Assembly (NCBI GenBank): GCA_965219995.1
Contig: CBDCOX010000002.1
Location: forward strand, 3,360,001-3,424,000
Length of the DNA stretch: 64,000 nucleotides
Direction of reading: 5' to 3'
DNA from: Candidatus Latescibacterota bacterium
Lineage (GTDB): Bacteria; Latescibacterota; UBA2968; GCA-2709665
Made by a program: the position numbers and the translations under genes. The notes under the pieces were generated by a model. That model saw nothing but the letters and a program-made list of their open reading frames with translations, searched no databases and was not told where the DNA came from. Of this stretch, positions 19,304-32,970 are shown piece by piece (positions within the stretch are counted from its first letter, which is position 1; each line of letters opens with the position of its first letter).

Positions 19304-20495
19304 TTATCCGAAGCGGCATCAGCAGACACAGGTAGTCTTCGCCTTCCGGCTGCTCCGCCGGACGAATGATCCCCGCAGCCATAGGACCGTCCAGTTCGAA
19401 CAATACCTCCTCGGAGTCGATACGTCTGAGAATATCCAGGAGATAGTTCGAATTGTAACCGACCACCATTTCGTTGCCGCTGTATTCGGCTTCGAGCTCC
19501 TCGCGGGCCTCACCGCCGATTTCCTGGCTCGAGGCCGATAGAACGACGCGGTTGTCGTTCATTTCCAGGCGAACCTGGTGTGTCTGTGCGCTTGAAAGAA
19601 TGGAAACCCGTCGGACAGCCGGCATAAATTGGCCGTTGGCCACCTTCATCGTTGTGCCGTTGTCCTGGGGGATTACCTGCTCATATTCGACGTAGGGGCC
19701 CTCCACTAGGCGGGAAAACAGGCGGATGGACCCGCGGGCACCCGTTTCGGAGCCGTTGGCCGCCTGCAAATCGAACACCAGGTGGTTCTGACCGAACTGC
19801 ACGCGGCCCAGGCTGCAGCCGCCGGAAGCCAGCTTGACCACGTGATTCAGCGCACGGGTCGGGACGATCGCCTCAGTTGAGACTTCATCGCCCTCCGACC
19901 GGGAAAGTGTCCTGGAGTATCTGACCAGTCTTGCGCCGTCCGTAGCGACCATCGTCATCCGGCCGCCGCCAACCTTCCAGAACACGCCGTTCAGGACAGG
20001 CCTGGTCTCATCTCTGGACACGGCAAACGTCGTCTTCAGAATCATCTCCCGCAACATCTGGCCCTCGCCACCGCCCTCAAGGTTCTCGTCTGCGGCCTCA
20101 AAGGCCATCTCGGGGCCGTCGACTTCCGCGGGCAACTCAGGAAAGTCTTCCGCGGGCGCCGCCATGAGCGCGTACGTTCCCTCCAGGCCCGACTCGCACT
20201 GGAGCGTCACGCGCCCTGAGTCTTCGGTCAGAACAAGGGGGCCTTCGGGCAGTTCCCGCACGATCTCGGCGAATTTCCGGGCCGGGACCGTGGTTGACCC
20301 GGGAGCCTCCACCGTGCCCGAAAGCAAACAGTTGATGGAAATGTCGAGATCGGTCGCGGTCAGACACACTTCGCCGCTCTCGTTGGTTCCGACGAGTATA
20401 TTTGACAGCACAGGCAAGGCTGTCTTCGACGGGACGATATCCAGCACCGAATTGATGCCCCAGATGAGCAGATCCTGCTCAATAACCACCTTCAT
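19296..20495 (-). CDS. dnaN: DNA polymerase III beta sliding clamp
   Basis: LPVLSN, ATDLD, RPVLNG, VATDG.RL, LLMPLR C-terminus. Confidence 0.97.
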   Translation of the reverse strand: MKVVIEQDLLIWGINSVLDIVPSKTALPVLSNILVGTNESGEVCLTATDLDISINCLLSGTVEAPGSTTVPARKFAEIVRELPEGPLVLTEDSGRVTLQCESGLEGTYALMAAPAEDFPELPAEVDGPEMAFEAADENLEGGGEGQMLREMILKTTFAVSRDETRPVLNGVFWKVGGGRMTMVATDGARLVRYSRTLSRSEGDEVSTEAIVPTRALNHVVKLASGGCSLGRVQFGQNHLVFDLQAANGSETGARGSIRLFSRLVEGPYVEYEQVIPQDNGTTMKVANGQFMPAVRRVSILSSAQTHQVRLEMNDNRVVLSASSQEIGGEAREELEAEYSGNEMVVGYNSNYLLDILRRIDSEEVLFELDGPMAAGIIRPAEQPEGEDYLCLLMPLRIND

Positions 20496-20613
20496 TTTCC
20501 TGTCTCCCGGGAACCCATGTTTCAACGACGTGGTTCCACCTGAATCCGGTTGAAATCTCGAGATTGTATTCGTCAAAAAAAACGGCCTGTTCGGGCGTTA
20601 TCAATCATGACGT

Positions 20614-20642
20614 AATATACTGATTTTTATCGAATTTGTCAA
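20614..20642 (-). promoter_or_regulatory. Sigma70 promoter of dnaN
   Basis: TTGACA-17-TATATT. Confidence 0.75.
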
Positions 20643-20899
20643 CGGATATTGTCTGTGTCGAGGTCCCGCGCAGGACCCCTCCCGAGGCGCCAATTGCGGG
20701 ATCACGGAAACGGCGGATTCAGCAGCCTCGTACAACCCTTCTCCGCACCGCGAAAAGCCACTGCTGTTTTCGACTGGTCTCGGAACCGATCCCGGTCGCC
20801 CCAACGTCGTTTTTCCCGGACTCGCACGTTCGCGGCCGACGGTCTTCGGACGCCGGCGACACGCAGCGCATTGTGTCCGTAATCCTCGCGGTCCAACCC

Positions 20900-21320
20900 G
20901 GATTTGCGGGATCTGTCCACATTCGCGATTGTGGATAACTCTTACCGAACTCATTGCGGATGTCGTGCGAATAACACTCATAAACTACGATTAATATGTA
21001 AAATACGGGGATCAAGCGTGTCAGGGCTCCGGAGAAATGAATCTGTGGAATGTTTTCCGGATAACCTGTGGATAGAGATTGGCGCACGGTACCTGTCCCG
21101 GGGATAGTGAATAAGCCTTCGGTTGCGCACAGGTTTTCCATATCAAACCGACAATTCCATTACCCCGTTTTTGCTTCCGGTCAGCGCTGAACTGCCAATT
21201 TTCCACTTTTCCACCGGGCTTATTGTTATTGTATCTTGATTAAATGTTATTGAAAAGATATAAAAATCAACAATGCCGGACGGAATTCCTGTGGATAGGT
21301 TCCGGTTTCCAAAAAAGAAA
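20900..21320. other. Chromosomal replication origin (oriC) between dnaA and dnaN
   Basis: Perfect DnaA box TGTGGATAA at 20930; near-consensus boxes at 20913, 20966, 21044, 21067, 21106, 21134, 21199, 21207, 21290; AT-rich tract 21220-21275. Confidence 0.88.
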
Positions 21321-21428
21321 CGACCGATACAAAACGTTTGTATCGGTCGTTCCGCAGGGAGACATGATGACAGGAGTCGTATTCAGCGGGCTTTGTTTGC
21401 CTTCACGGAAACACCGGCGAAGAAGGGT

Positions 21429-22856
21429 TCAGGCCGAAGAGAACTGCTGGACCCTGTTCTGGATGCGGCCGACAAGCGCCTCGAAATCGGGATCGGCAGA
21501 AAGCCTGGTGGCGATGTTCTTGCACGCGTGAATAACCGTTGTATGATCGCGATTTCCGAATTCAGTGCCGATTGACTTGAGGGGCGCCTCCGTAAGCCGT
21601 CTGCAAAGGTACATGCAGATATGCCTTGCCGTGGCGATATCCTGCTTTCGGGTGGAACCGGTCAGCATTTCCACGGGGATGTTAAAGAAGCCCGCCGTAC
21701 CCTTCTGAATCTTCTCGATGCTGATTGCGGGCGACATAATGGCATCGGCGCGTCCCAGACTCTTTATGGTATCCCTAGCAATCTGGAGGGAAACGGGAGC
21801 GCGTTTATATACCGAAAAAGTAATGAGATGGGTCAGAGCACCCTCCAGCTCCCTGATATTCGAGTCTACCTGCTCAGCCATGAAACGCGCGACGTCGGAC
21901 GGTATTCTGACGCCATGGTCTCCCGCCTTCTGATTGACAATTGCCATTCGGGTTTCCAGGTCCGGTCGGTCGATATCCGATACAAGCCCCCATTGAAACC
22001 TTGAAATCAGTCTGTCTTCGAATCCCTTCAGGGTTGACGGCGGCCGGTCGGAACTCAGGACGATCTGTTTGTTGTGTTGATACAATGTGTTGAAGGTGTG
22101 AATGAGTTCGCGCTGGCAGGCTTCGGTCTTTACGTAGAACTGAATGTCGTCGATGAGAAGAATGTCGGCATTTCGATAAATCTCGACATAAGCGGATGTA
22201 TCCTGCTTCCGGATGGCCTTCAGATAGTCGGTAAAGAACCTTTCGGCCGTCGTATACACCACGCGCCCGGCCGTGTGGTTCCGCACGCAATAGTCGGCGA
22301 TTGCCTGGAGCAAATGCGTTTTCCCGAGGCCCACGCCGCTATAGATGACGAGGGGATTGTAGGACGTCGTGCCCGGCGACTCCGCGACGGCTTTCGCCGC
22401 TGTAAACGAGAACTGATTGCTTTCACCGACGACGAAATCTTCGAACCGGTATCTGGGATTCAGCGGAAAAACGGCTTCGGATACAACAGCGGGTACGGGG
22501 TCTTCACTGGTCGGCCGGGCATTCGGGGCAGGCGGGGAATCATCGGTTATGGTGAAGTCGGGTGGCGACCCCGAGGCAGACCGGACGTTTATCTTGACGG
22601 CAAACCGAATTTCCGGCGTCCAGGAAGTGATTTCCTCGATTACAGACTTGATTAGATCGAGCCAATGTTCTTCAAGCCAGTCTCCGAAAAAGGAAGTTGG
22701 CACCTCAATAACCGCGAACTCCGCGTCCAGTCGTGGTGACAACGTCTCGGCGAACCAGGTACTGTACGCATCCGCCTCGATTTTCCCCTCGATTTTCCGC
22801 AGACACCTGCCCCAGAGGACGGAAGGATCTTCAACCATAAAGACAAAGCCACCCAT
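21429..22856 (-). CDS. dnaA: Chromosomal replication initiator DnaA
   Basis: LNPRY.FEDFVVG, YNPL..YSGVGLGKTHL, LIDDIQF, RLISRF, NIRELEG, RDHTTVIHA. Start 22856 or 22838. Confidence 0.98.
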   Translation of the reverse strand: MGGFVFMVEDPSVLWGRCLRKIEGKIEADAYSTWFAETLSPRLDAEFAVIEVPTSFFGDWLEEHWLDLIKSVIEEITSWTPEIRFAVKINVRSASGSPPDFTITDDSPPAPNARPTSEDPVPAVVSEAVFPLNPRYRFEDFVVGESNQFSFTAAKAVAESPGTTSYNPLVIYSGVGLGKTHLLQAIADYCVRNHTAGRVVYTTAERFFTDYLKAIRKQDTSAYVEIYRNADILLIDDIQFYVKTEACQRELIHTFNTLYQHNKQIVLSSDRPPSTLKGFEDRLISRFQWGLVSDIDRPDLETRMAIVNQKAGDHGVRIPSDVARFMAEQVDSNIRELEGALTHLITFSVYKRAPVSLQIARDTIKSLGRADAIMSPAISIEKIQKGTAGFFNIPVEMLTGSTRKQDIATARHICMYLCRRLTEAPLKSIGTEFGNRDHTTVIHACKNIATRLSADPDFEALVGRIQNRVQQFSSA

Positions 22857-23154
22857 ACATTAGCGAGGGACATGCGCCGTCGCTAAGCTCTATTTACAAT
22901 ATAAAAGAGAGTTGGCGGGGAAGTATGCCGAGCCCTGCCAGAAGCCAGAAGATCATCTATGGAGGGAGTATTGCAGAAGATATTCTGGGGGGATGGAATT
23001 CACGGCAGAGAAAGAGGTGAATTCCTTGTATACGGACAATAAAAAGGCCTGCCGGTTGCAGACCGGTCTCTGGAAAATAGCGGGAACAATAAAACTGATG
23101 ATCATGATGCGGGGGAGTCGCCGAAGGAACTGCCTCGGCAAAAAGGACGGCGCC

Positions 23155-23183
23155 AAACTAAAGAATGGATCTGCAAAAGTCAA
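23155..23183 (-). promoter_or_regulatory. Candidate sigma70 promoter of dnaA
   Basis: TTGACT-17-TAGTTT. Confidence 0.55.
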
Positions 23184-23321
23184 GCCCTTTCTGGCAGAAA
23201 AACCGCCTTGTTTTTCAACAATCGTCCTTTGACCTCGATATACCATATAGTGTATATTTCTCCCGATAAATACACCATTTAGTGGAGTTTTTCGTGATTG
23301 CATGGAGACCAATGAAATCCC

Positions 23322-23350
23322 TTGACAAAGATTCCTTCCCCGTCTATATT
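23322..23350 (+). promoter_or_regulatory. Sigma70 promoter of the rpmH operon
   Basis: TTGACA-17-TATATT; second candidate TTGACC-18-TATATT at 23229-23258. Confidence 0.75.
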
Positions 23351-23417
23351 CATAAGTTCCTACAATTCATTTAGATACAACAACAGCTGTTCTCTGCGCA
23401 ACGCACGGACAAGGGAT

Positions 23418-23552
23418 ATGAAGCGGACGTTCCAGCCCAGCAACCGGAAACGAAAAAACAAACACGGCTTTCGCCACCGCATGCGAACCCCAGGCGGGCG
23501 TCAGATCTTCTCCAGGCGCCGGCGCAAGGGCCGCGTACGGGTGTCCCTGTAA
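23418..23552 (+). CDS. rpmH: 50S ribosomal protein L34
   Basis: [26 protein letters not shown]....RRR.KGR. Confidence 0.98.
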
Positions 23553-23553
23553 T

Positions 23554-23916
23554 ATGACGAGACCAGCCGCCGGATTGCGCGGCGAGGTTCACAGTCTCCG
23601 GCGGACCGGATCGTTATTCAAGGGTCGCTGGTTGCATGTCCGTGCAGGCAATGCCTCAGAAGATCGTATTATCATCTCCGTGCGCAAGCGGTTTGGAAAG
23701 GCCGTCGCGCGAAATCGCGCACGGCGGCGAATTCGCGCCATCTGCAGAGAAATGGCTCCGCACCGCAGCACGGGTCATCTGGTCATCATATCCGTCGGCG
23801 ACGGATCGGCCGCTGCAGGGTTCCGGGATCTGCGCAGAGACGTGATCGCTGCGTTTGGAAAACTGGGTCTTCTCCACGGGTCGGCCATCCCGCCGTTGGG
23901 GTTGCGTCCTCGTTGA
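23554..23916 (+). CDS. rnpA: Ribonuclease P protein component
   Basis: SVRKRFGKAVARNRARRRIR RNR motif; directly after rpmH. Confidence 0.88.
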   Translation: MTRPAAGLRGEVHSLRRTGSLFKGRWLHVRAGNASEDRIIISVRKRFGKAVARNRARRRIRAICREMAPHRSTGHLVIISVGDGSAAAGFRDLRRDVIAAFGKLGLLHGSAIPPLGLRPR

Positions 23917-24110
23917 ATCGCCCTCCGCTTTTTCTTCGGATGCGTGTCGCCCCCCGTACCATGCCCCCTCAGTGTTCTGACCCGGAAACTGATTGCCGAA
24001 ATCCGGTCGATGAGTCGCCCGGCTCGCATACGGTGTGCAAGCCGGGGCACTTCCAAGGGCTCACATTCCTTTCTGCAACTTGCAGAACCGCGACATCACA
24101 GGTCTGACGA

Positions 24111-25820: not shown

Positions 25821-27176
25821 ATGAGACCATCGGACCGCGATACCATTGTCGCAATCGCCACCGGTAACGGCGAGGCAGCGATAGGCATCGTCCGGCTTAC
25901 GGGTCCGGAGGCGGTAGGAATCGCCTCCGGGTTTTTTTGTGGCGCGGGTGAATTGAGGGGAATAGAGGACCGCCGCCTGACGTATGGAAGGTTTGTGGTT
26001 GGAGACCAGGTCCTGGACGAGGTCCTCGTCTCTGTCATGAGGGGTTCCAGGTCGTTTACGGGCGAAGACACGGTCGAGTTCAACTGCCACGGCGGCCCCT
26101 TTCTTTTGCGGCGCGCGATGGAGGCGCTGGTCTCGGCGGGCGCACGCCCCGCCGAACCGGGCGAATTCACCCGGCGGGCATTTCTCAGCGGCCGAATCGA
26201 TCTTACCCAGGCCGAAGCGATATCGGATATGATCAGCGCCCGGGCCGACCGGGGTCTTCGGTCCGCCTATTTCCAGTTGCGCGGTGGTCTGAGGGCCCGG
26301 TTCGAAGATCTGGCGGAAGCCCTGCGGGATTCGCTGACAATGCTCGAGGCGGGACTGGATTTTTACGAAGACGCGGGTGTCGAACAGGACGCGATGCGTC
26401 CGTCGCTCACGCGGGCGGCGGAAGAAATCGAGCGGCTGATCGCCTCGTATCAACACGGAAAAATCATACGCGAAGGCGCCCTGGTCGCCCTGGCCGGCCC
26501 GCCGAACGCCGGCAAATCGAGCCTGCTCAACCGGCTGCTGGAAGAGGACCGCGCCATCGTTTCGCCGGTTTCCGGAACCACGCGGGACACGATTGAGGAG
26601 TCGATCATCCTGGACGGCATTCGCGTCACGCTGGTCGACACGGCCGGGATTGCGAAACCGCGTGATGACATTGAGCGGGAGGGCGCGCGACGTTCACGCA
26701 AGGCGATCGCGCGGGCCGGCCTCGTGCTGCTGATCGTGGATGCGTCCGTCCCCGCAGCCCCCGGGCTGGAAGCGATGGTGGAGGGCGTGACTCCCGAAAA
26801 CGTGCTTCTCGTCAAGAACAAGCAGGATCTCGGCCTCCACGACGACTGGCGGGGGACGCACATGTTTCAGGGACTCTCCACCTCCGCCCTCACGGGGGAG
26901 GGTCTTGACAGCCTCAGGAAGCGTGTCCGCGGGTGCGTGATGGCGGTATCCGATCCCGATCCTGGCGTGGTAACGCACGCGCGACACGTGGAGGCGTTGC
27001 AGCGGGCCGGAGACGCGCTCGGCAGGGCAACCGGGGCGCTTGGCGAGGAACTTCCCGGAGAGGTGGTGGCGCTGGAACTGCGGGAGGCAACCGACGCGTT
27101 GGCGGAGATTGTCGGCGAAACCACGTCGGAGGACATCCTGGACCGGATCTTCAGTACATTTTGTATAGGCAAATAG
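25821..27176 (+). CDS. mnmE: tRNA modification GTPase MnmE
   Basis: DTIVAIAT, SFTGED, GPPNAGKSS, GTTRD, DTAG, NKQD, FCIGK end. Confidence 0.97.
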   Translation: MRPSDRDTIVAIATGNGEAAIGIVRLTGPEAVGIASGFFCGAGELRGIEDRRLTYGRFVVGDQVLDEVLVSVMRGSRSFTGEDTVEFNCHGGPFLLRRAMEALVSAGARPAEPGEFTRRAFLSGRIDLTQAEAISDMISARADRGLRSAYFQLRGGLRARFEDLAEALRDSLTMLEAGLDFYEDAGVEQDAMRPSLTRAAEEIERLIASYQHGKIIREGALVALAGPPNAGKSSLLNRLLEEDRAIVSPVSGTTRDTIEESIILDGIRVTLVDTAGIAKPRDDIEREGARRSRKAIARAGLVLLIVDASVPAAPGLEAMVEGVTPENVLLVKNKQDLGLHDDWRGTHMFQGLSTSALTGEGLDSLRKRVRGCVMAVSDPDPGVVTHARHVEALQRAGDALGRATGALGEELPGEVVALELREATDALAEIVGETTSEDILDRIFSTFCIGK

Positions 27177-27177
27177 C

Positions 27178-27388
27178 ATAAAGGCGGTGAGACGGAAGAC
27201 GGTAGACGGTAGAAAAAAGCGGTAAGACGTGAGACGGTAGACGGTAGAAAAAAGCGGTAAGACGTGAGACGGTAGACGGTAGATGACATCTTTGCCCGAT
27301 AGGTTGCTCCTTTTTGCCTGCGGCAAGAAATGAAACCGAACAGGCAATGATATTTTCTCACGTCTTGCGTCTCACGTCTCACCGGTTT
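27178..27388. repeat. Heptamer-armed hairpin element family B, with a 35-bp left arm triplicated in tandem
   Basis: aaaaaagcggtaagacgtgagacggtagacggtag twice exact plus one diverged copy (27178-27282); core with tgcc-tgc-ggca apex; inverted right arm ...ctcacgtctcaccggttt. Confidence 0.8.
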
Positions 27389-27392
27389 GTAA

Positions 27393-27408
27393 TGTTCCAC
27401 GTGAAACA
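27393..27408. promoter_or_regulatory. parS centromere site
   Basis: TGTTCCACGTGAAACA, matching the parS consensus TGTTNCACGTGAAACA, about 6 kb from oriC. Confidence 0.85.
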
Positions 27409-28110: not shown

Positions 28111-28509
28111 TCACTCGGCCTGGACGAGTTCGATCAGGACGCCCGATGCGCTCCGGGGATGGATGAAAGCCACCCGCCGGCCGAGCGCGCCCGTCCGGAT
28201 TCCGCCGGCGATTGCGACGCCCCGGTCCTTGCAGGCCGAGACGGCGGCATCGATATTTTTAACACGGACGGCAATATGGTGCAGACCCTGTCCCTTCCTG
28301 GAAAGGAACCGTGTCAGGGAACTCCCTTCGTGCGTTGGTTCCAGGAGTTCGAGCCGGATCAGGCCGGTTCCGCCCAGAAATACCGCCCGGACACCTTCGG
28401 CTTCCACGGTCTCTTCGTCCGTTGTTTCAAAACCGAGCATCGCATAGACGGCCAGTGCCCGGTCAATCCCCTCCACCGCGATGCCCACATGATCCACGTG
28501 TCCGTCCAC
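28111..28509 (-). CDS. mce: Methylmalonyl-CoA epimerase
   Basis: DHVGIAV, ELLEP, GLHHIA, FIHP...GVLIELVQ; directly after the mutase. Confidence 0.92.
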   Translation of the reverse strand: MDGHVDHVGIAVEGIDRALAVYAMLGFETTDEETVEAEGVRAVFLGGTGLIRLELLEPTHEGSSLTRFLSRKGQGLHHIAVRVKNIDAAVSACKDRGVAIAGGIRTGALGRRVAFIHPRSASGVLIELVQAE

Positions 28510-28511
28510 GG

Positions 28512-30368
28512 TTATCCTCCCGGTCTGTAGGATCCAAAAGCGGAACGCAGCCTGTCCGATATCTCGCCAACCGTCCCGCCGGCGAACCCTGCCGCCACGA
28601 CCGCTTCCGTTATCGACCCCGTGCCCCGCGCCCGTCGTTCGACGTTGTCCAGCGCAGCCTGCAGGGCATCGGAATCCCGCAGGGCCCGTGTCCGCGCCAG
28701 GCCCAGTTTCTGACTTTGTTCCGAGTCCTGTGTGGGTTGGAAGGTCGAAACCGGCACGTCAGGATCTCCCTGAAAACGGTTCACCCCCACCACCACGGTC
28801 TCCCCGGACTCGATCTTCTTTTGCGCATGGTATGCCGAGTCCGCAATACAGCCCGCCGTAAAGCCGTTTGCGGCCGCCTGACCCGCCCCGCCCTCGCGGT
28901 CGACCGCCTCCAGTACGGCCATAGCTTCCTCCTCCAGTTCATCGGTCATTTTTTCGACCGCGTACGACCCTCCCATGGGATCGATGGTATCCGGGATGCC
29001 GCTTTCGTAGGCGAGGATCTGCTGCGTTCGTACCGCCAGTTGCGCGCCCGCATCCGTTGGCAGACCCAGCGCTTCATCGTACGCGTTGACGTGCAATGAC
29101 TGGGCGCCGCCCAGAACGGCGGCCAGCGCCTGCAGCGTGGTCCGTGCGCAGTTGTTCATCGGCTGCTGGGCCGTGAGGGTCGAGCCGGCGGTCTGCGCAT
29201 GGAATCTCAGGCGCCTGCAGCGCGGATCCTCCACACCGAGGCGTTCCTGGACGAGGCGGCTCCAGAGTCGTCTTGCCGCGCGGAATTTTGCGATTTCCTC
29301 CAGAAAATGGTTGTGGACGCCGTAAAAGAAGGAGAATTTCGGGAGGAACCGCTCCGGTTCGAGCCCTGCAGCGATGGCGGCATCGGCATACGACAGGGCG
29401 TGGGCGAGCGTAAAGCCAAGCTCCTGCGCGGCGGTTGCGCCGGCCTCCCTCATGTGGTAACCGCTGACGCTGATTGGATTCCATTTTGGCGCCTCTCTGA
29501 GACAATAGTCCATCAGATCGACCACCAGGCGCATCGAGTCGGCAATCGGGAAGACATATGTTCCACGTGAAACATATTCCTTGAGAATATCATTCTGGAC
29601 CGTGCCGGTAAGCGCCCGCGAAGGCAGACCTCGTTTCTTTCCGAGGCCCGCGTAGAACGCGAACAGGATGCACGCCGTCGCGTTGATCGTCATCGATGTA
29701 CTGATGCGGTCGAGCGGGATACCATCGAACAGGGCATCCAGGTCCCAGAGGCCGTCCACCGCCACGCCCACCCTGCCCACCTCGCCGTCGGCGTTTGGAT
29801 GGTCCGAGTCGTAGCCCATCTGGGTGGGCAGGTCGAACGCCACGCTCAAGCCGGTCTGACCCCGGGCAAGCAGATCGCGAAACCGGGTGTTGGTCTCCGC
29901 GGGGGTGGAAAATCCCGCGTACTGGCGGAAGGTCCAGAGGCGTCCGCGATACATGGAGGGATAGGCGCCGCGGGTGAAGGGGGGTTCGCCCGGGCGTCCG
30001 ATCCGGTCCTGAGCGTCGCCGTCGCTTCCGTCTCCGCTGCCCCCTGCCCCCGCGGAATGTGGTTCGCTATTGACCCCGCCGTCGCACGTTTTCACGCTCT
30101 CGGAGGGGCCGGCAAGAAGTCCTGCCATCCGGTCGAACAGGCGCCTGGCTTCTGCCGAAGTGGCGCGCTGCCTGTAGGCCTGCAACAGGAGCGTACCGGA
30201 GTCCAGGTCAAGGGCGGCCGCCAGATCCAGGCATCGTTTGTCCGAAGGAATTCGCTTTCCGCTCTCGATCTGTCCGATATAGGTGCCCCAGACGCCGATC
30301 GATTCACCCAGACCCTGCTGGCTGAACCTGCCCTGGCGCGCTTTCCTGATCATCTTGCCGAAATCCAT
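28512..30368 (-). CDS. XRE-HTH fused to methylmalonyl-CoA mutase large (substrate-binding) subunit
   Basis: N-terminal HTH (FSQQGLGESIGVWGTYIGQIESGKRIPS), G/S linker, then PFTRG, RQYAGF, GLSVAFDLPTQMG, QNDILKEY, SGYHMREAG; no DxHxxG B12 domain. Start 30368 or 30383. Confidence 0.9.
   Translation of the reverse strand: MDFGKMIRKARQGRFSQQGLGESIGVWGTYIGQIESGKRIPSDKRCLDLAAALDLDSGTLLLQAYRQRATSAEARRLFDRMAGLLAGPSESVKTCDGGVNSEPHSAGAGGSGDGSDGDAQDRIGRPGEPPFTRGAYPSMYRGRLWTFRQYAGFSTPAETNTRFRDLLARGQTGLSVAFDLPTQMGYDSDHPNADGEVGRVGVAVDGLWDLDALFDGIPLDRISTSMTINATACILFAFYAGLGKKRGLPSRALTGTVQNDILKEYVSRGTYVFPIADSMRLVVDLMDYCLREAPKWNPISVSGYHMREAGATAAQELGFTLAHALSYADAAIAAGLEPERFLPKFSFFYGVHNHFLEEIAKFRAARRLWSRLVQERLGVEDPRCRRLRFHAQTAGSTLTAQQPMNNCARTTLQALAAVLGGAQSLHVNAYDEALGLPTDAGAQLAVRTQQILAYESGIPDTIDPMGGSYAVEKMTDELEEEAMAVLEAVDREGGAGQAAANGFTAGCIADSAYHAQKKIESGETVVVGVNRFQGDPDVPVSTFQPTQDSEQSQKLGLARTRALRDSDALQAALDNVERRARGTGSITEAVVAAGFAGGTVGEISDRLRSAFGSYRPGG
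29559..29574. promoter_or_regulatory. parS centromere site inside the mutase CDS
   Basis: TGTTCCACGTGAAACA identical to the 27393 copy, extended by ata/tat flanks. Confidence 0.8.
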
Positions 30369-30502
30369 CGCCGAAGCCTCCATTGCGGAATCGCGGGACC
30401 GGATCAACCGAGCGCGACGCCGGAACCGCGTCAACACACGCTTGTGTGTGTAGTGTTAAGACATAAAATACTGTTTTTAAATACGCTTATAAAAACCTGC
30501 AA

Positions 30503-30890
30503 TCGGTGAGACGTGAGACGGTAGAAGGTAGATGACGTCCTTGCGTGATTGACTCTACTTTTATGCCTGCGGCAAAAAGTGAAACCGGACGGGGCAATAA
30601 AGGCGGTGAGACGTGAGTCGGGAGACGGTAGATGAGTTGGTCCGCCTGCGGTTAATCCATCGCGTGCTGGCAGGTCTCCTGTCGGCGGAAAACCCACTCG
30701 ACAATTGCATCCTTGCAAAAGACATGCCTTCGCGAATTGATGAATTGACAACGCCAGGCCATATCGAAATCCAGTGGACGCGGAATCATCCTCTCCCCTC
30801 TCCCGTCTAACGTCTCCCCGCTCTTCAGGCACTCACATCATCTCCCATCTCCCCGCTTCTTGAGGGGCCGGTGGGAGAGGTCTGCGCCCT
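30503..30890. repeat. Family B heptamer-armed elements (two left arms, two right arms, variable internal cargo)
   Basis: cggtgagacgtgagacggtagaaggtagatga at 30504; ggcggtgagacgtgagtcgggagacggtagatga at 30602; right arms ...cgtctccccgctctt (30825) and ...ctccccgcttct (30860). Confidence 0.75.
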
Positions 30891-30974: not shown

Positions 30975-31312
30975 GAGGGTTACCAGAGCAGAGCGCGCTG
31001 ATCCGTCCAGCGACGCGGATCGATGTTCCTCCGAGGGTGCCAGGGCAGAGGATGATGTGCATCCTGCAAGCGTGTTCGCGCTATGCATATGGCAGGCCCC
31101 ACGCCCAGTGGCGACTATTCCAAAGGCGGTAAGACGTTAGAGGAAAGACGGTAGAAGTAACCCTTGCCAAGTATGTTTTCCCTTCTTGCCTTCGGCACTT
31201 ATAGAATTCGCACAAGGCAGGTAATCTCTACCCTCTCCCGTCTTCCGTCTCCCCGCTTTTAAGGAACCCGCCGGAGGCAGGGAATTTGGGGAAAAGGGGA
31301 TTTTGAATTTGA
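30975..31312. mobile_element. Right half of element family C, interrupted by a family B element (31122-31260)
   Basis: Aligns to 37682-37900 on both sides of the inserted aaaggcggtaagacg...cgtctccccgctttt unit. Confidence 0.75.
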
Positions 31313-32407: not shown

Positions 32408-32598
32408 GGGATAAGCACGACGAGACGGGCCGCATCCGGTATTCGAACGATGAGTAATCCACGATATTGAAAACTCGAATGACGACAATGTGGAAAACTT
32501 AGTCATTGTTTTTATAGTGTTTAAATGAAGCAATCCACAGAATTCCACCAATGGTTGAGATTTGTGGAAAACATGTGCAAGAACCCGGAGGCACTTCC

Positions 32599-32970
32599 AA
32601 ATGCGGTAAGAGGGTAGACGTGAGACGGTAGAGGACATCGTTGCCCGATTGGTTCTTCCTTTATGCCTCTGGCAAGAAATGATATCGCTCGTGGCAGGCA
32701 ACAAAACCGGTGAGACGTGAGCCGGTAGACGGGAGAAGACATCCGTGCCGGGTCGGTTCTTGCTTTATGCCACCGGCAAGAAATGAAATCGCATAGGGTA
32801 GACAATCTCTCCCCTCTCATCGCTTTTGAGGGGCAGGGGGGAGAAGTCTGCGCATCGCTGATAGATTTCGCAGGTCCGTATCGATATCCGGTCGACGCGG
32901 GGTGATCATCTCCCGTCTCCCGTCTCCCCTCTCACCGCTTTTTGGGGCCGGGGGAGAGGTCTCCGCGCCG
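32599..32970. repeat. Family B heptamer-armed elements (two tandem units plus an extra right arm)
   Basis: Units at 32602 and 32706 with tgcc-NNN-ggca-agaaatga core; right arms at 32805-32826 and 32908-32944, each followed by ggggc..ggg.gag..gtct..gc. Confidence 0.78.

Follow-up and report, generated by a model that had tools for sequence, protein, structure and literature searches.

A single gene of an uncultured Latescibacterota bacterium joins a DNA-binding domain to a subunit of a vitamin B12-dependent mutase. The stretch of DNA analyzed here (hereafter the window) comprises 64,000 nucleotides of assembly GCA_965219995.1, contig CBDCOX010000002.1, positions 3,360,001 to 3,424,000. On its minus strand (28512..30368; 618 codons plus stop), a helix-turn-helix (HTH) domain of the XRE/Cro type, a linker and the substrate-binding large subunit of an adenosylcobalamin (AdoCbl)-dependent acyl-CoA mutase follow one another in one reading frame. 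The fusion is real and specific to a single genus of uncultured marine and sponge-associated bacteria. Judged from the comparison of loci, its HTH is the descendant of a free-standing regulator that resides at the same place in sister genera. The reading that we favor, with somewhat better than even confidence, is that of a bifunctional protein, a mutase subunit that doubles as an autoregulator and governs a small regulon; besides serving the enzyme, the fusion probably represses its own operon and two other genes.

The fusion gene, its enzyme half and its distribution

An open reading frame (ORF) scan finds the frame unbroken from 30437 down to 28512. The HTH module, consisting of a five-helix HTH and a sixth helix, covers amino acids (aa) 1-88 (30105..30368, minus strand), as placed by HTH_3, by AlphaFold2 (AF2) and by homology to aa 1-88 of free-standing 166-aa proteins. 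The HTH_3 model (PF01381) scores 29.8 bits near the N-terminus, against a Pfam cut-off of 23. A linker rich in Gly, Ser, Asp, Glu and Pro (aa 89-124; 29997..30104, minus) follows, whose variable length and sequence are evident from the orthologue alignment, the substitution rates and AF2. The substrate-binding barrel of a split-type large subunit (aa 125-618; 28515..29996, minus) completes the chain; it matches positions 23-512 of the 512 of MM_CoA_mutase (PF01642) with 644 bits (cut-off 22.1) and the NCBIfam model of the acyl-CoA mutase N-terminal domain, TIGR00641, with 648 bits (cut-off 303.8), in addition to its matches in the PDB. The unbroken HTH-linker-mutase ORF proposed in the initial annotation is borne out by both model collections and by the genomes of the genus, while its start codon, placed at 30383, has to be moved to the Met of MDFGKMIRK at 30368. 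A Shine-Dalgarno sequence, GGAGG (30377..30381, minus), stands 8 nt 5′ of this ATG and is kept genus-wide in an upstream alignment of 15 loci. In two relatives a stop codon immediately precedes the same Met, and the TAG flagged as lying inside their genes is located 5′ of the start. Two nucleotides past the fusion stop begins mce, the gene of methylmalonyl-CoA epimerase (28111..28509, minus; TIGR03081, 123.9 bits against a cut-off of 114.95), just as first described, and the two genes are probably co-transcribed.

The C-terminal 494 residues are predicted to be the substrate-binding large subunit of a split AdoCbl-dependent methylmalonyl-CoA mutase (MCM). In a PDB search, the closest solved relatives were HcmA (4r3u_A, 1.8e-149), human MCM (1e-136) and MutB of P. 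shermanii (2.6e-129). At the specificity positions the protein resembles MCM and differs from HcmA, with RQYAGF in place of RQIAGF, VAFDLPT in place of TDFDMPT, VQNDILKEY in place of VQADILKEY and SRGTY in place of AQKEY; in the alignment with human MCM and HcmA, the latter carries Ile, Asp, Ala and Gln at these four places. The motif SGYHMREAG is conserved too and aligns with human MCM. The Tyr of RQYAGF, the Gln of QND, the Arg of RGTY and the Tyr-His of GYH presumably have the substrate roles and the numbering known from the P. shermanii and human enzymes. These MCM-type residues are invariant in 19 fused orthologues, and the alignment with human MCM agrees with the earlier view that the catalytic and specificity residues are intact. 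The replacement of the mutase's N-terminal arm by the HTH was likewise seen correctly: Pfam positions 1-22 are absent, and the unfused orthologue of the sister genus G018 has about 40 extra N-terminal residues. Split-type mutases are α2β2 assemblies. The B12-binding small subunit is absent from the window, as first stated, and is found about 860 kb away as a 131-aa protein (TIGR00640, 159.6 bits) with the DxHxxG motif LDGHDRG; its gene overlaps the start of meaB (TIGR00750, 291 bits). With the large subunit, the small subunit, MeaB and mce, the predicted MCM machinery of the genome is complete.

The distribution of the fusion was followed in 30 relative genomes, 14 of which belong to the same genus, so that the genus comprises 15 with that of the window (5.44 Mb, two contigs), in which the fusion gene is the only copy of PF01642. 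The fusion is intact and in one frame in 14/15 of these genomes, with orthologues 79-92% identical, and it is in the sister genus G018 that an unfused form is found. The linker indels in the alignment of 15 orthologues are all multiples of three, and in G013 the linker is nearly gone, with a few residues left. The exceptional genome, G009 (locus L020), lacks 7 nt that G014 has in a G-rich run at codons 11-14, a gap that shifts the HTH frame after codon 11, in helix 1, and leaves the remainder of the fusion intact in another frame; the gap could be an assembly error or a genuine loss of the HTH. An independent run on a sponge metagenome yielded a contig of 2042 nt that covers positions 28553-30598 of the window; the alignment contains 27 differences as well as 7 gap letters. 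The part of the chain from the HTH to the conserved core of the mutase has a single Met, Met81, which is GTG-Val in one orthologue and ATC-Ile in another and is not preceded by a Shine-Dalgarno sequence. Since there is no usable internal start, the mutase would not be producible without the HTH.

In a collection of 5.8 billion proteins, the PF01381+PF01642 architecture occurs in 11 clusters. Among the best 120 mutase homologues, 11 carry an HTH and are 84-94% identical, whereas the other 109 have PF01642 only and are at most 67% identical. As the HTH-bearing homologues all lie at or above 84% and the rest are unfused, the fusion is real and a marker of one clade. In the ESM Atlas the nearest clusters were plain PF01642 at 0.79 and no large HTH+mutase cluster turned up, which is not evidence of absence. 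A profile search with the HTH module over 1.84 billion representatives returned stand-alone relatives of 130-220 aa and generic multi-HTH proteins; fused proteins were not visible there, presumably because they are grouped under unfused mutase representatives. Three matches of about 600 aa in the HTH-profile search (P0138, P0142 and P0076) were rejected as fusions, since they contain HTH repeats and no mutase. On a 5.5-kb public contig, a 100-aa HTH-only protein (P0013) matches aa 1-92 with 88% identity and may stem from a gene clipped at the contig end or represent a split form.

The HTH module, its origin and an associated inverted repeat

Purifying selection acts on the HTH as strongly as on the mutase. 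Over 91 pairs of 14 orthologues (Nei-Gojobori method, G009 excluded, synonymous divergence dS about 0.6-0.8), the ratio of nonsynonymous to synonymous substitution rates (dN/dS) is 0.129 for aa 1-60 of the HTH, 0.25 for the sixth helix (aa 61-90), 0.83 for the linker and 0.124 for the mutase part. Residues of helices 2 and 3 are invariant in fused and free forms, including S16, Q17, G25, V26, W27, T29, Y30, I31, Q33, I34 and E35. An AF2 model of aa 1-96 (50 sequences) has six helices at a mean predicted local distance difference test (pLDDT) score of 90, with disorder from aa 89 onward (pLDDT <50). Foldseek places the HTH model on the P22 c2 repressor-operator complex (3jxb_C) with a root-mean-square deviation of 1.1 Å over 61 residues, and further matches include SinR-DNA, 434, C-proteins (C.AhdI) and DdrO, with weak E-values of 2e-3 to 1e-2. 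Prediction of a two-copy complex of the N-terminal module (aa 1-96) gave a score of 0.35, against a mark of 0.42 and controls of 0.00, a result that speaks neither for nor against self-dimerization.

The ancestry of this module is legible in the neighboring genera. Free-standing frames of about 176 aa (genes of 166-167 aa) outside the genus match fusion residues 5-94 at 57-66% identity; over the HTH module the stand-alone homologues are 55-63% identical, and HTH_3 recognizes them with 34-38 bits. In G015, G017, G019, G021 and G026, the 166-167-aa HTH gene occupies the slot of the fusion, after yidC-mnmE-rsmG and on the opposite strand, and genes for an FAA-hydrolase, a CDP-alcohol phosphatidyltransferase and a thymidylate kinase neighbor fused and free loci alike. 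The homology between fused and free proteins stops at about aa 88 (...LLADP), beyond which the free proteins continue into a helical domain of about 78 aa with no Pfam match and the pattern ...RDI..L...I..M...QW.AL.... The fusion genus itself has no free-standing close paralogue, its other HTH matches having E-values of 6.6e-5 or worse. With the fusion as query, no mutase match was found in G015 or in the genomes of genus g6, and G016 and G017 returned IcmF-like proteins only. In G018 the slot holds an unfused mutase followed by mce, without an HTH gene, a state that may be intermediate or secondarily split. The mutase-mce cassette would thus have arrived behind the control region of a resident regulator, and a deletion would have merged both genes, removing the regulator's C-terminal domain of about 78 aa and the mutase's arm of about 40 aa and leaving a disordered linker. 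The sole family member in G018 is a protein 42% identical, GVYATYIGQIELG, on another contig; as the 4 kb around its gene are free of palindromes, the role of trans regulator of that genome's unfused mutase could not be attributed to it.

The family of HTH proteins is accompanied by an inverted repeat, ACACAC-N6-GTGTGT, 5′ of its own genes. In the window, the candidate operator ACACACACAAGCGTGTGT (30434..30451, minus) lies 66-83 nt 5′ of the start codon, and just 5′ of it stands a conserved, AT-rich, promoter-like block, TTTATA-17 nt-TATTTT (30465..30493, minus). A related repeat precedes the fusion gene in 14/15 fused loci, and in these 14 the block adjoins it. About 190-230 nt 5′ of all five stand-alone genes examined the repeat is present as well, in perfect form in G017. 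In the 15 genomes of g6, the 16-mer ACACAAACAAGTGTGT has 16 matches, one in each genome and an extra one with 1 mismatch in G026, compared with 0 for a reversed control; wherever the position of the HTH gene is known, the match lies about 200 nt 5′ of it. G015 and G017 carry the repeat at the HTH gene, G017 with one further 1-mismatch match elsewhere, and G016 has neither HTH nor repeat.

This co-occurrence holds phylum-wide. Across 75 family loci, taken from species-representative genomes labeled Candidatus Latescibacterota or Gemmatimonadota, the repeat was sought in the 700 nt upstream, allowing for a single mismatch; it is present in 56/75 (47/61 stand-alone, 9/14 fused) and in 0/75 downstream controls of equal length. 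The arms are constant across the family and the 6-nt spacer is clade-specific, and recognition by a protein therefore fits better than an RNA hairpin. Rfam gave no match upstream at the window or at eight loci, apart from a tRNA in L030, so that neither the palindrome nor the conserved non-coding block near it is accounted for by a known RNA family. When the own genome of the window was scanned more loosely (arms of 7 nt, up to 2 mismatches), 7 matches appeared where about 10 are expected from composition; at this threshold the count is uninformative.

Several features of the intergenic DNA were recorded alongside. About 100-350 nt 5′ of the stand-alone HTH genes of L027-L031, two families share a long conserved stretch of non-coding DNA, in which the palindrome stands between the complementary sequences CCCTCCCCAC...GTGGGGAG and a second element reads AAAATATACGCTCTCAAGTGTGTGTTGTCAAG; no Rfam match was obtained. 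The window contains intergenic repeats of about 104 nt, resembling miniature inverted-repeat transposable elements (MITE) or repetitive extragenic palindromes (REP), at 27174-27396, 30493-30635, 30791-30887, 31116-31267 and 32593-32968, with heptads of the GAGACG(G/T) type and inverted arms. Metagenome contig depth rises 10-30-fold across 30457-30638.

Within the fusion genus the repeat also recurs away from the fusion gene. With at most 1 mismatch, the 15 genomes of the genus contain 52 matches to ACACACAAGNNTGTGT and 6 to its reversed control. In 15/15 of them a match stands 10-310 nt ahead of a NIF3/DUF34 gene (PF01784, 94 bits), where it is the sole conserved island in an otherwise unalignable spacer that extends from an EamA transporter gene to the NIF3 gene; in the window's own genome, outside the window, the repeat is at C2:4418619-4418638 and the gene at C2:4418631-4419431. 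In 12/15 it lies about 320-380 nt upstream of a gene for a CbiX-like protein of 262 aa (32.8 bits for CbiX, PF01903, and 35.7 bits for a partial match to Oxidored_molyb). Here the own genome, again outside the window, has a perfect ACACACACACAAGTGTGTGT at C2:4538220-4538239, before a 95-aa ORF and the CbiX-like gene (C2:4537111-4537896). No repeat was found at 14 loci of CbiX-like homologues outside the genus (0/14), and in G015-G018 a search with NIF3 gave nothing homologous at E ≤1e-10. Four genus genomes have another ACACACAAGNNTGTGT match about 5.6 kb from the CbiX-like locus. WD40-repeat proteins (393 and 610 aa, 8-13 repeats) are encoded beside both extra loci (C2:4535835-4537016 and C2:4422162-4423994), with no link established.

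The chelatase fold of CbiX belongs to the synthesis of corrin and sirohaem. DUF34/NIF3 proteins have been proposed as metal chaperones or insertases (PMC8469502). In a word search of that paper, cobalt and B12 do not occur and cobalamin occurs once, in a table; a cobalt or corrinoid theme of the regulon is therefore speculation.

As for the wider surroundings of the gene, the initial annotation placed it next to oriC. This is roughly right, in that a cumulative GC-skew minimum and a GC dip (0.54) lie at about 20-24 kb of the window, where positions 20000-24000 or so are probably the dnaA/oriC region. A 475-aa ORF (21429..22856, minus), upstream of yidC, falls within the region of the skew minimum.

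Regulatory models

In the explanation that we prefer, the N-terminal 88 residues would act as a phage-repressor-like HTH and the C-terminal 494 as a mutase large subunit that works with the 131-aa B12-binding subunit, MeaB and the co-transcribed epimerase. The fused protein would bind ACACAC-N6-GTGTGT repeats as a dimer, the mutase barrel supplying dimerization in place of the lost C-terminal domain, and would control the mcm-mce operon, the NIF3/DUF34 gene and the CbiX-like gene. Repression is suggested by the position of the repeat just 3′ of the promoter-like block. The weakest step would be a modulation of DNA binding by the substrate, or by docking of the B12 subunit or MeaB. A precise allosteric coupling is argued against by a linker that is long, disordered and nearly neutral; on the other side, the ancestral C-terminal domain has given way to the mutase and the regulon has grown since the fusion, which argues that the mutase is more than a passive attachment. 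A simpler reading, autoregulation without a metabolite signal, is also allowed, because the HTH is a captured neighboring autoregulator, an origin that the initial annotation did not foresee. The enzyme-plus-regulator proposal of the initial annotation is thus supported in part: conservation across the genus, selection on the HTH, descent from a regulator, co-occurrence of family and repeat, and the presence of the repeat at three loci in genomes without a free-standing copy all speak for it, while the metabolic signal stays the tentative portion.

A number of observations weigh against this explanation. The repeat lies at about -80 in 6 of the fused loci and at -590 to -1100 in the other 8, which is far for a simple operator; the distance in these 8 is due to MITE-like repeats inserted between the palindrome/promoter block and the gene. 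Locus L019 has no palindrome in its 410 nt of upstream sequence, 19/75 family loci lack a site within 700 nt, and 3/15 CbiX-like loci are without the site. Conversely, G018 (L032 8444-8600), a genome 80% complete, has two palindromes, at -201 and -140, before its unfused mutase and no close HTH homologue. The palindrome is of low complexity, (AC)n/(GT)n, and the loose scan of the own genome stays at chance level. A sigma-70 consensus scan gave the TTTATA/TATTTT block 8 of 12 and did not call it a promoter. The putative link between HTH and repeat is one of co-localization and nothing further. If the G009 frameshift is real, the HTH is dispensable in that genome. The AF2 model of the full-length fusion (19 close orthologues) has a mean pLDDT of 38 and is uninterpretable. 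RNA-library contigs cover 30202-30416 and 29865-30037 only, which neither shows nor excludes a single transcript, and the positions of the 7 gap letters in the spanning 2042-nt contig (X6) are not displayed.

Of the other explanations, the one with the best prospects, though we hold it to be less probable, is a signal-blind autoregulation, in which the HTH represses its own promoter as its ancestor did, the amount of repressor is tied to the amount of enzyme and the mutase just provides dimerization. The ancestral family does resemble a plain autoregulator, with essentially one perfect site per genome beside its own gene; neutral or mildly useful fusions arise most often as this one did, from adjacent genes of one transcription unit, and the linker is floppy. 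An input-free regulator would nevertheless be unusual, and the conserved sites peculiar to the fusion genus, at NIF3 in all 15 genomes and at the CbiX-like gene in 12, are left unexplained. These same sites lend some weight to a metabolite- or cofactor-sensing trigger enzyme, in which occupancy by methylmalonyl- or succinyl-CoA, or docking of the AdoCbl small subunit or MeaB, would alter the geometry of two HTHs, so that mcm-mce, NIF3 and the CbiX-like gene follow propionate flux or B12 supply. We regard this as possible but rather unlikely, and its probability is contained in that of the favored explanation, of which it is a stronger form and not an alternative. It shares the comparative support for DNA binding; the ancestral C-terminal domain that was replaced is the usual seat of signal or oligomerization functions; the extra sites belong to the fusion genus only, the CbiX-like site being absent from the 14 outside loci, and in G015, G017 and g6 the site is essentially confined to the HTH gene. 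The chelatase fold of CbiX (PF01903) and the metal chaperone or insertase role proposed for DUF34/NIF3 (PMC8469502) point the same way, although that paper is without cobalt or B12 and has a single mention of cobalamin, in a table. The linker, at a dN/dS of 0.83 and with few residues in G013, tells against sensing, as does the small-subunit-meaB operon, which has no palindrome at the thresholds used. In its most explicit form, which we put forward quite tentatively, the mutase barrel would be the sensor domain: acyl-CoA occupancy, or capping by the AdoCbl small subunit or MeaB, would set the binding of the HTH pair, and the cell would read its only B12 mutase and set by it the mutase-epimerase operon and the CbiX-like and NIF3/DUF34 genes, the latter two being candidates for metal or corrinoid handling, with a regulon assembled only after the fusion.

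It is improbable that the HTH no longer binds DNA and persists as a leftover or a protein-protein contact, with the palindromes bound by another factor or representing RNA hairpins or repeat debris. The frameshift in helix 1 of G009, the distance of the palindrome from the start codon in 8/15 loci, its resemblance to a dinucleotide repeat, its potential to form an RNA hairpin of 7 bp, and its retention in G018 without a close HTH homologue would all fit. Yet the HTH keeps a dN/dS of 0.13 at a dS of about 0.7, residues of helices 2-3 are invariant in fused and free forms, the arms are conserved in sequence and do not covary while the spacer changes, and HTH and palindrome occur together in most family loci and are jointly absent in G016. 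An artefact, be it a sequencing error that runs two genes together or an internal start used for the mutase, has a near-negligible probability and is effectively refuted. It could appeal to the metagenome-type assembly of the window's genome (7.6% contamination) and to the 7 gap letters at undisclosed places in the spanning contig; against this stand a single frame in 14/15 independently assembled species genomes, linker indels in multiples of three, the 11 public protein clusters with PF01381+PF01642, the lack of a conserved internal start or Shine-Dalgarno sequence and a mutase without its own N-terminal arm.

Relation to known systems and significance

Trigger enzymes, or bifunctional enzyme-repressors, include PutA, BirA, NadR and the archaeal RbkR. 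The fusion resembles them in holding an enzyme and a DNA-binding domain in one chain, both kept by selection, with a candidate operator at its own operon. It differs in that its enzyme is a B12-dependent acyl-CoA mutase subunit, that its XRE/Cro HTH was recently captured from a neighbor and that it is confined to one genus-level clade. Structurally, as far as the sequence allows, it falls within the trigger-enzyme class, with a putative ligand switch. Papers on such systems include PMC5397151 and PMC6978683; in the main texts of the openly licensed PMC and bioRxiv literature no description was found of an acyl-CoA mutase with a DNA-binding domain.

The nearest relatives of each half show what has changed. 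The free-standing 'GVWGTYIGQIEKG' XRE proteins, uncharacterized products of 130-220 aa from metagenome-assembled genomes (MAGs) labeled Latescibacterota or Gemmatimonadota, share the N-terminal 88 residues, the genomic slot and the upstream repeat, but have their own C-terminal domain of about 78 aa and essentially one strong site per genome, versus at least 3 conserved sites in the fusion genus. Split-type large subunits (TIGR00641, 'acid_CoA_mut_N') and HcmA (4r3u) share the full barrel, an alignment over the full length, a separate small subunit and an adjacent MeaB; in the fusion, unlike these, the arm of about 40 residues is replaced by HTH and linker, and the residues are of the MCM and not of the HCM type.

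Other comparisons are more distant. IcmF, a MeaB GTPase joined to isobutyryl-CoA mutase, is likewise an acyl-CoA mutase that gained a domain by fusion with a functionally linked neighbor; identity with this type was rejected, as NF045497 reaches 253.5 bits against a cut-off of 1500, the chain contains neither a GTPase nor a B12 domain and MeaB is encoded by a gene of its own. CarH is a MerR-type HTH fused directly to a B12-binding domain, and thus also a transcription factor tied to B12 chemistry; a docked small subunit would pair the HTH of the fusion with a B12-binding Rossmann domain. The fusion is nonetheless not of the CarH type, since it lacks PF02310, its HTH is XRE-type and sits on the substrate barrel, and the B12 domain is supplied in trans; the CarH model NF052513 matched only the small subunit, weakly (E 0.071). 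PrpR and RamB are actinobacterial XRE regulators of propionate and acetate metabolism whose C-terminal parts are non-catalytic sensor domains. They resemble the fusion in carrying an N-terminal XRE HTH on a larger protein that governs short-chain acyl-CoA metabolism; they differ in having sensor domains where the fusion has an enzyme subunit, and past the HTH there is no meaningful sequence relationship (RamB model NF038139 on a stand-alone homologue, E 0.031).

Bifunctional enzyme-regulators are few and mostly ancient, and their emergence is therefore hard to see. The fusion described here is young, and its steps can be read in living relatives: a free-standing autoregulator with one operator per genome, the arrival of a mutase-epimerase cassette behind its control region, fusion with loss of the C-terminal domain, and two extra sites found in the genus only. 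With its putative operator of 18 bp, its protein of 618 aa and its partner subunits defined, the system is tractable for asking whether an AdoCbl enzyme can report the state of its substrate or cofactor to the genome. Should the HTH be signal-blind, the fusion would still be a clean case of a catalytic subunit replacing the oligomerization domain of a repressor. For the family as a whole, the cognate DNA motif would provide a first functional handle on the uncharacterized small XRE proteins of MAGs labeled Latescibacterota.

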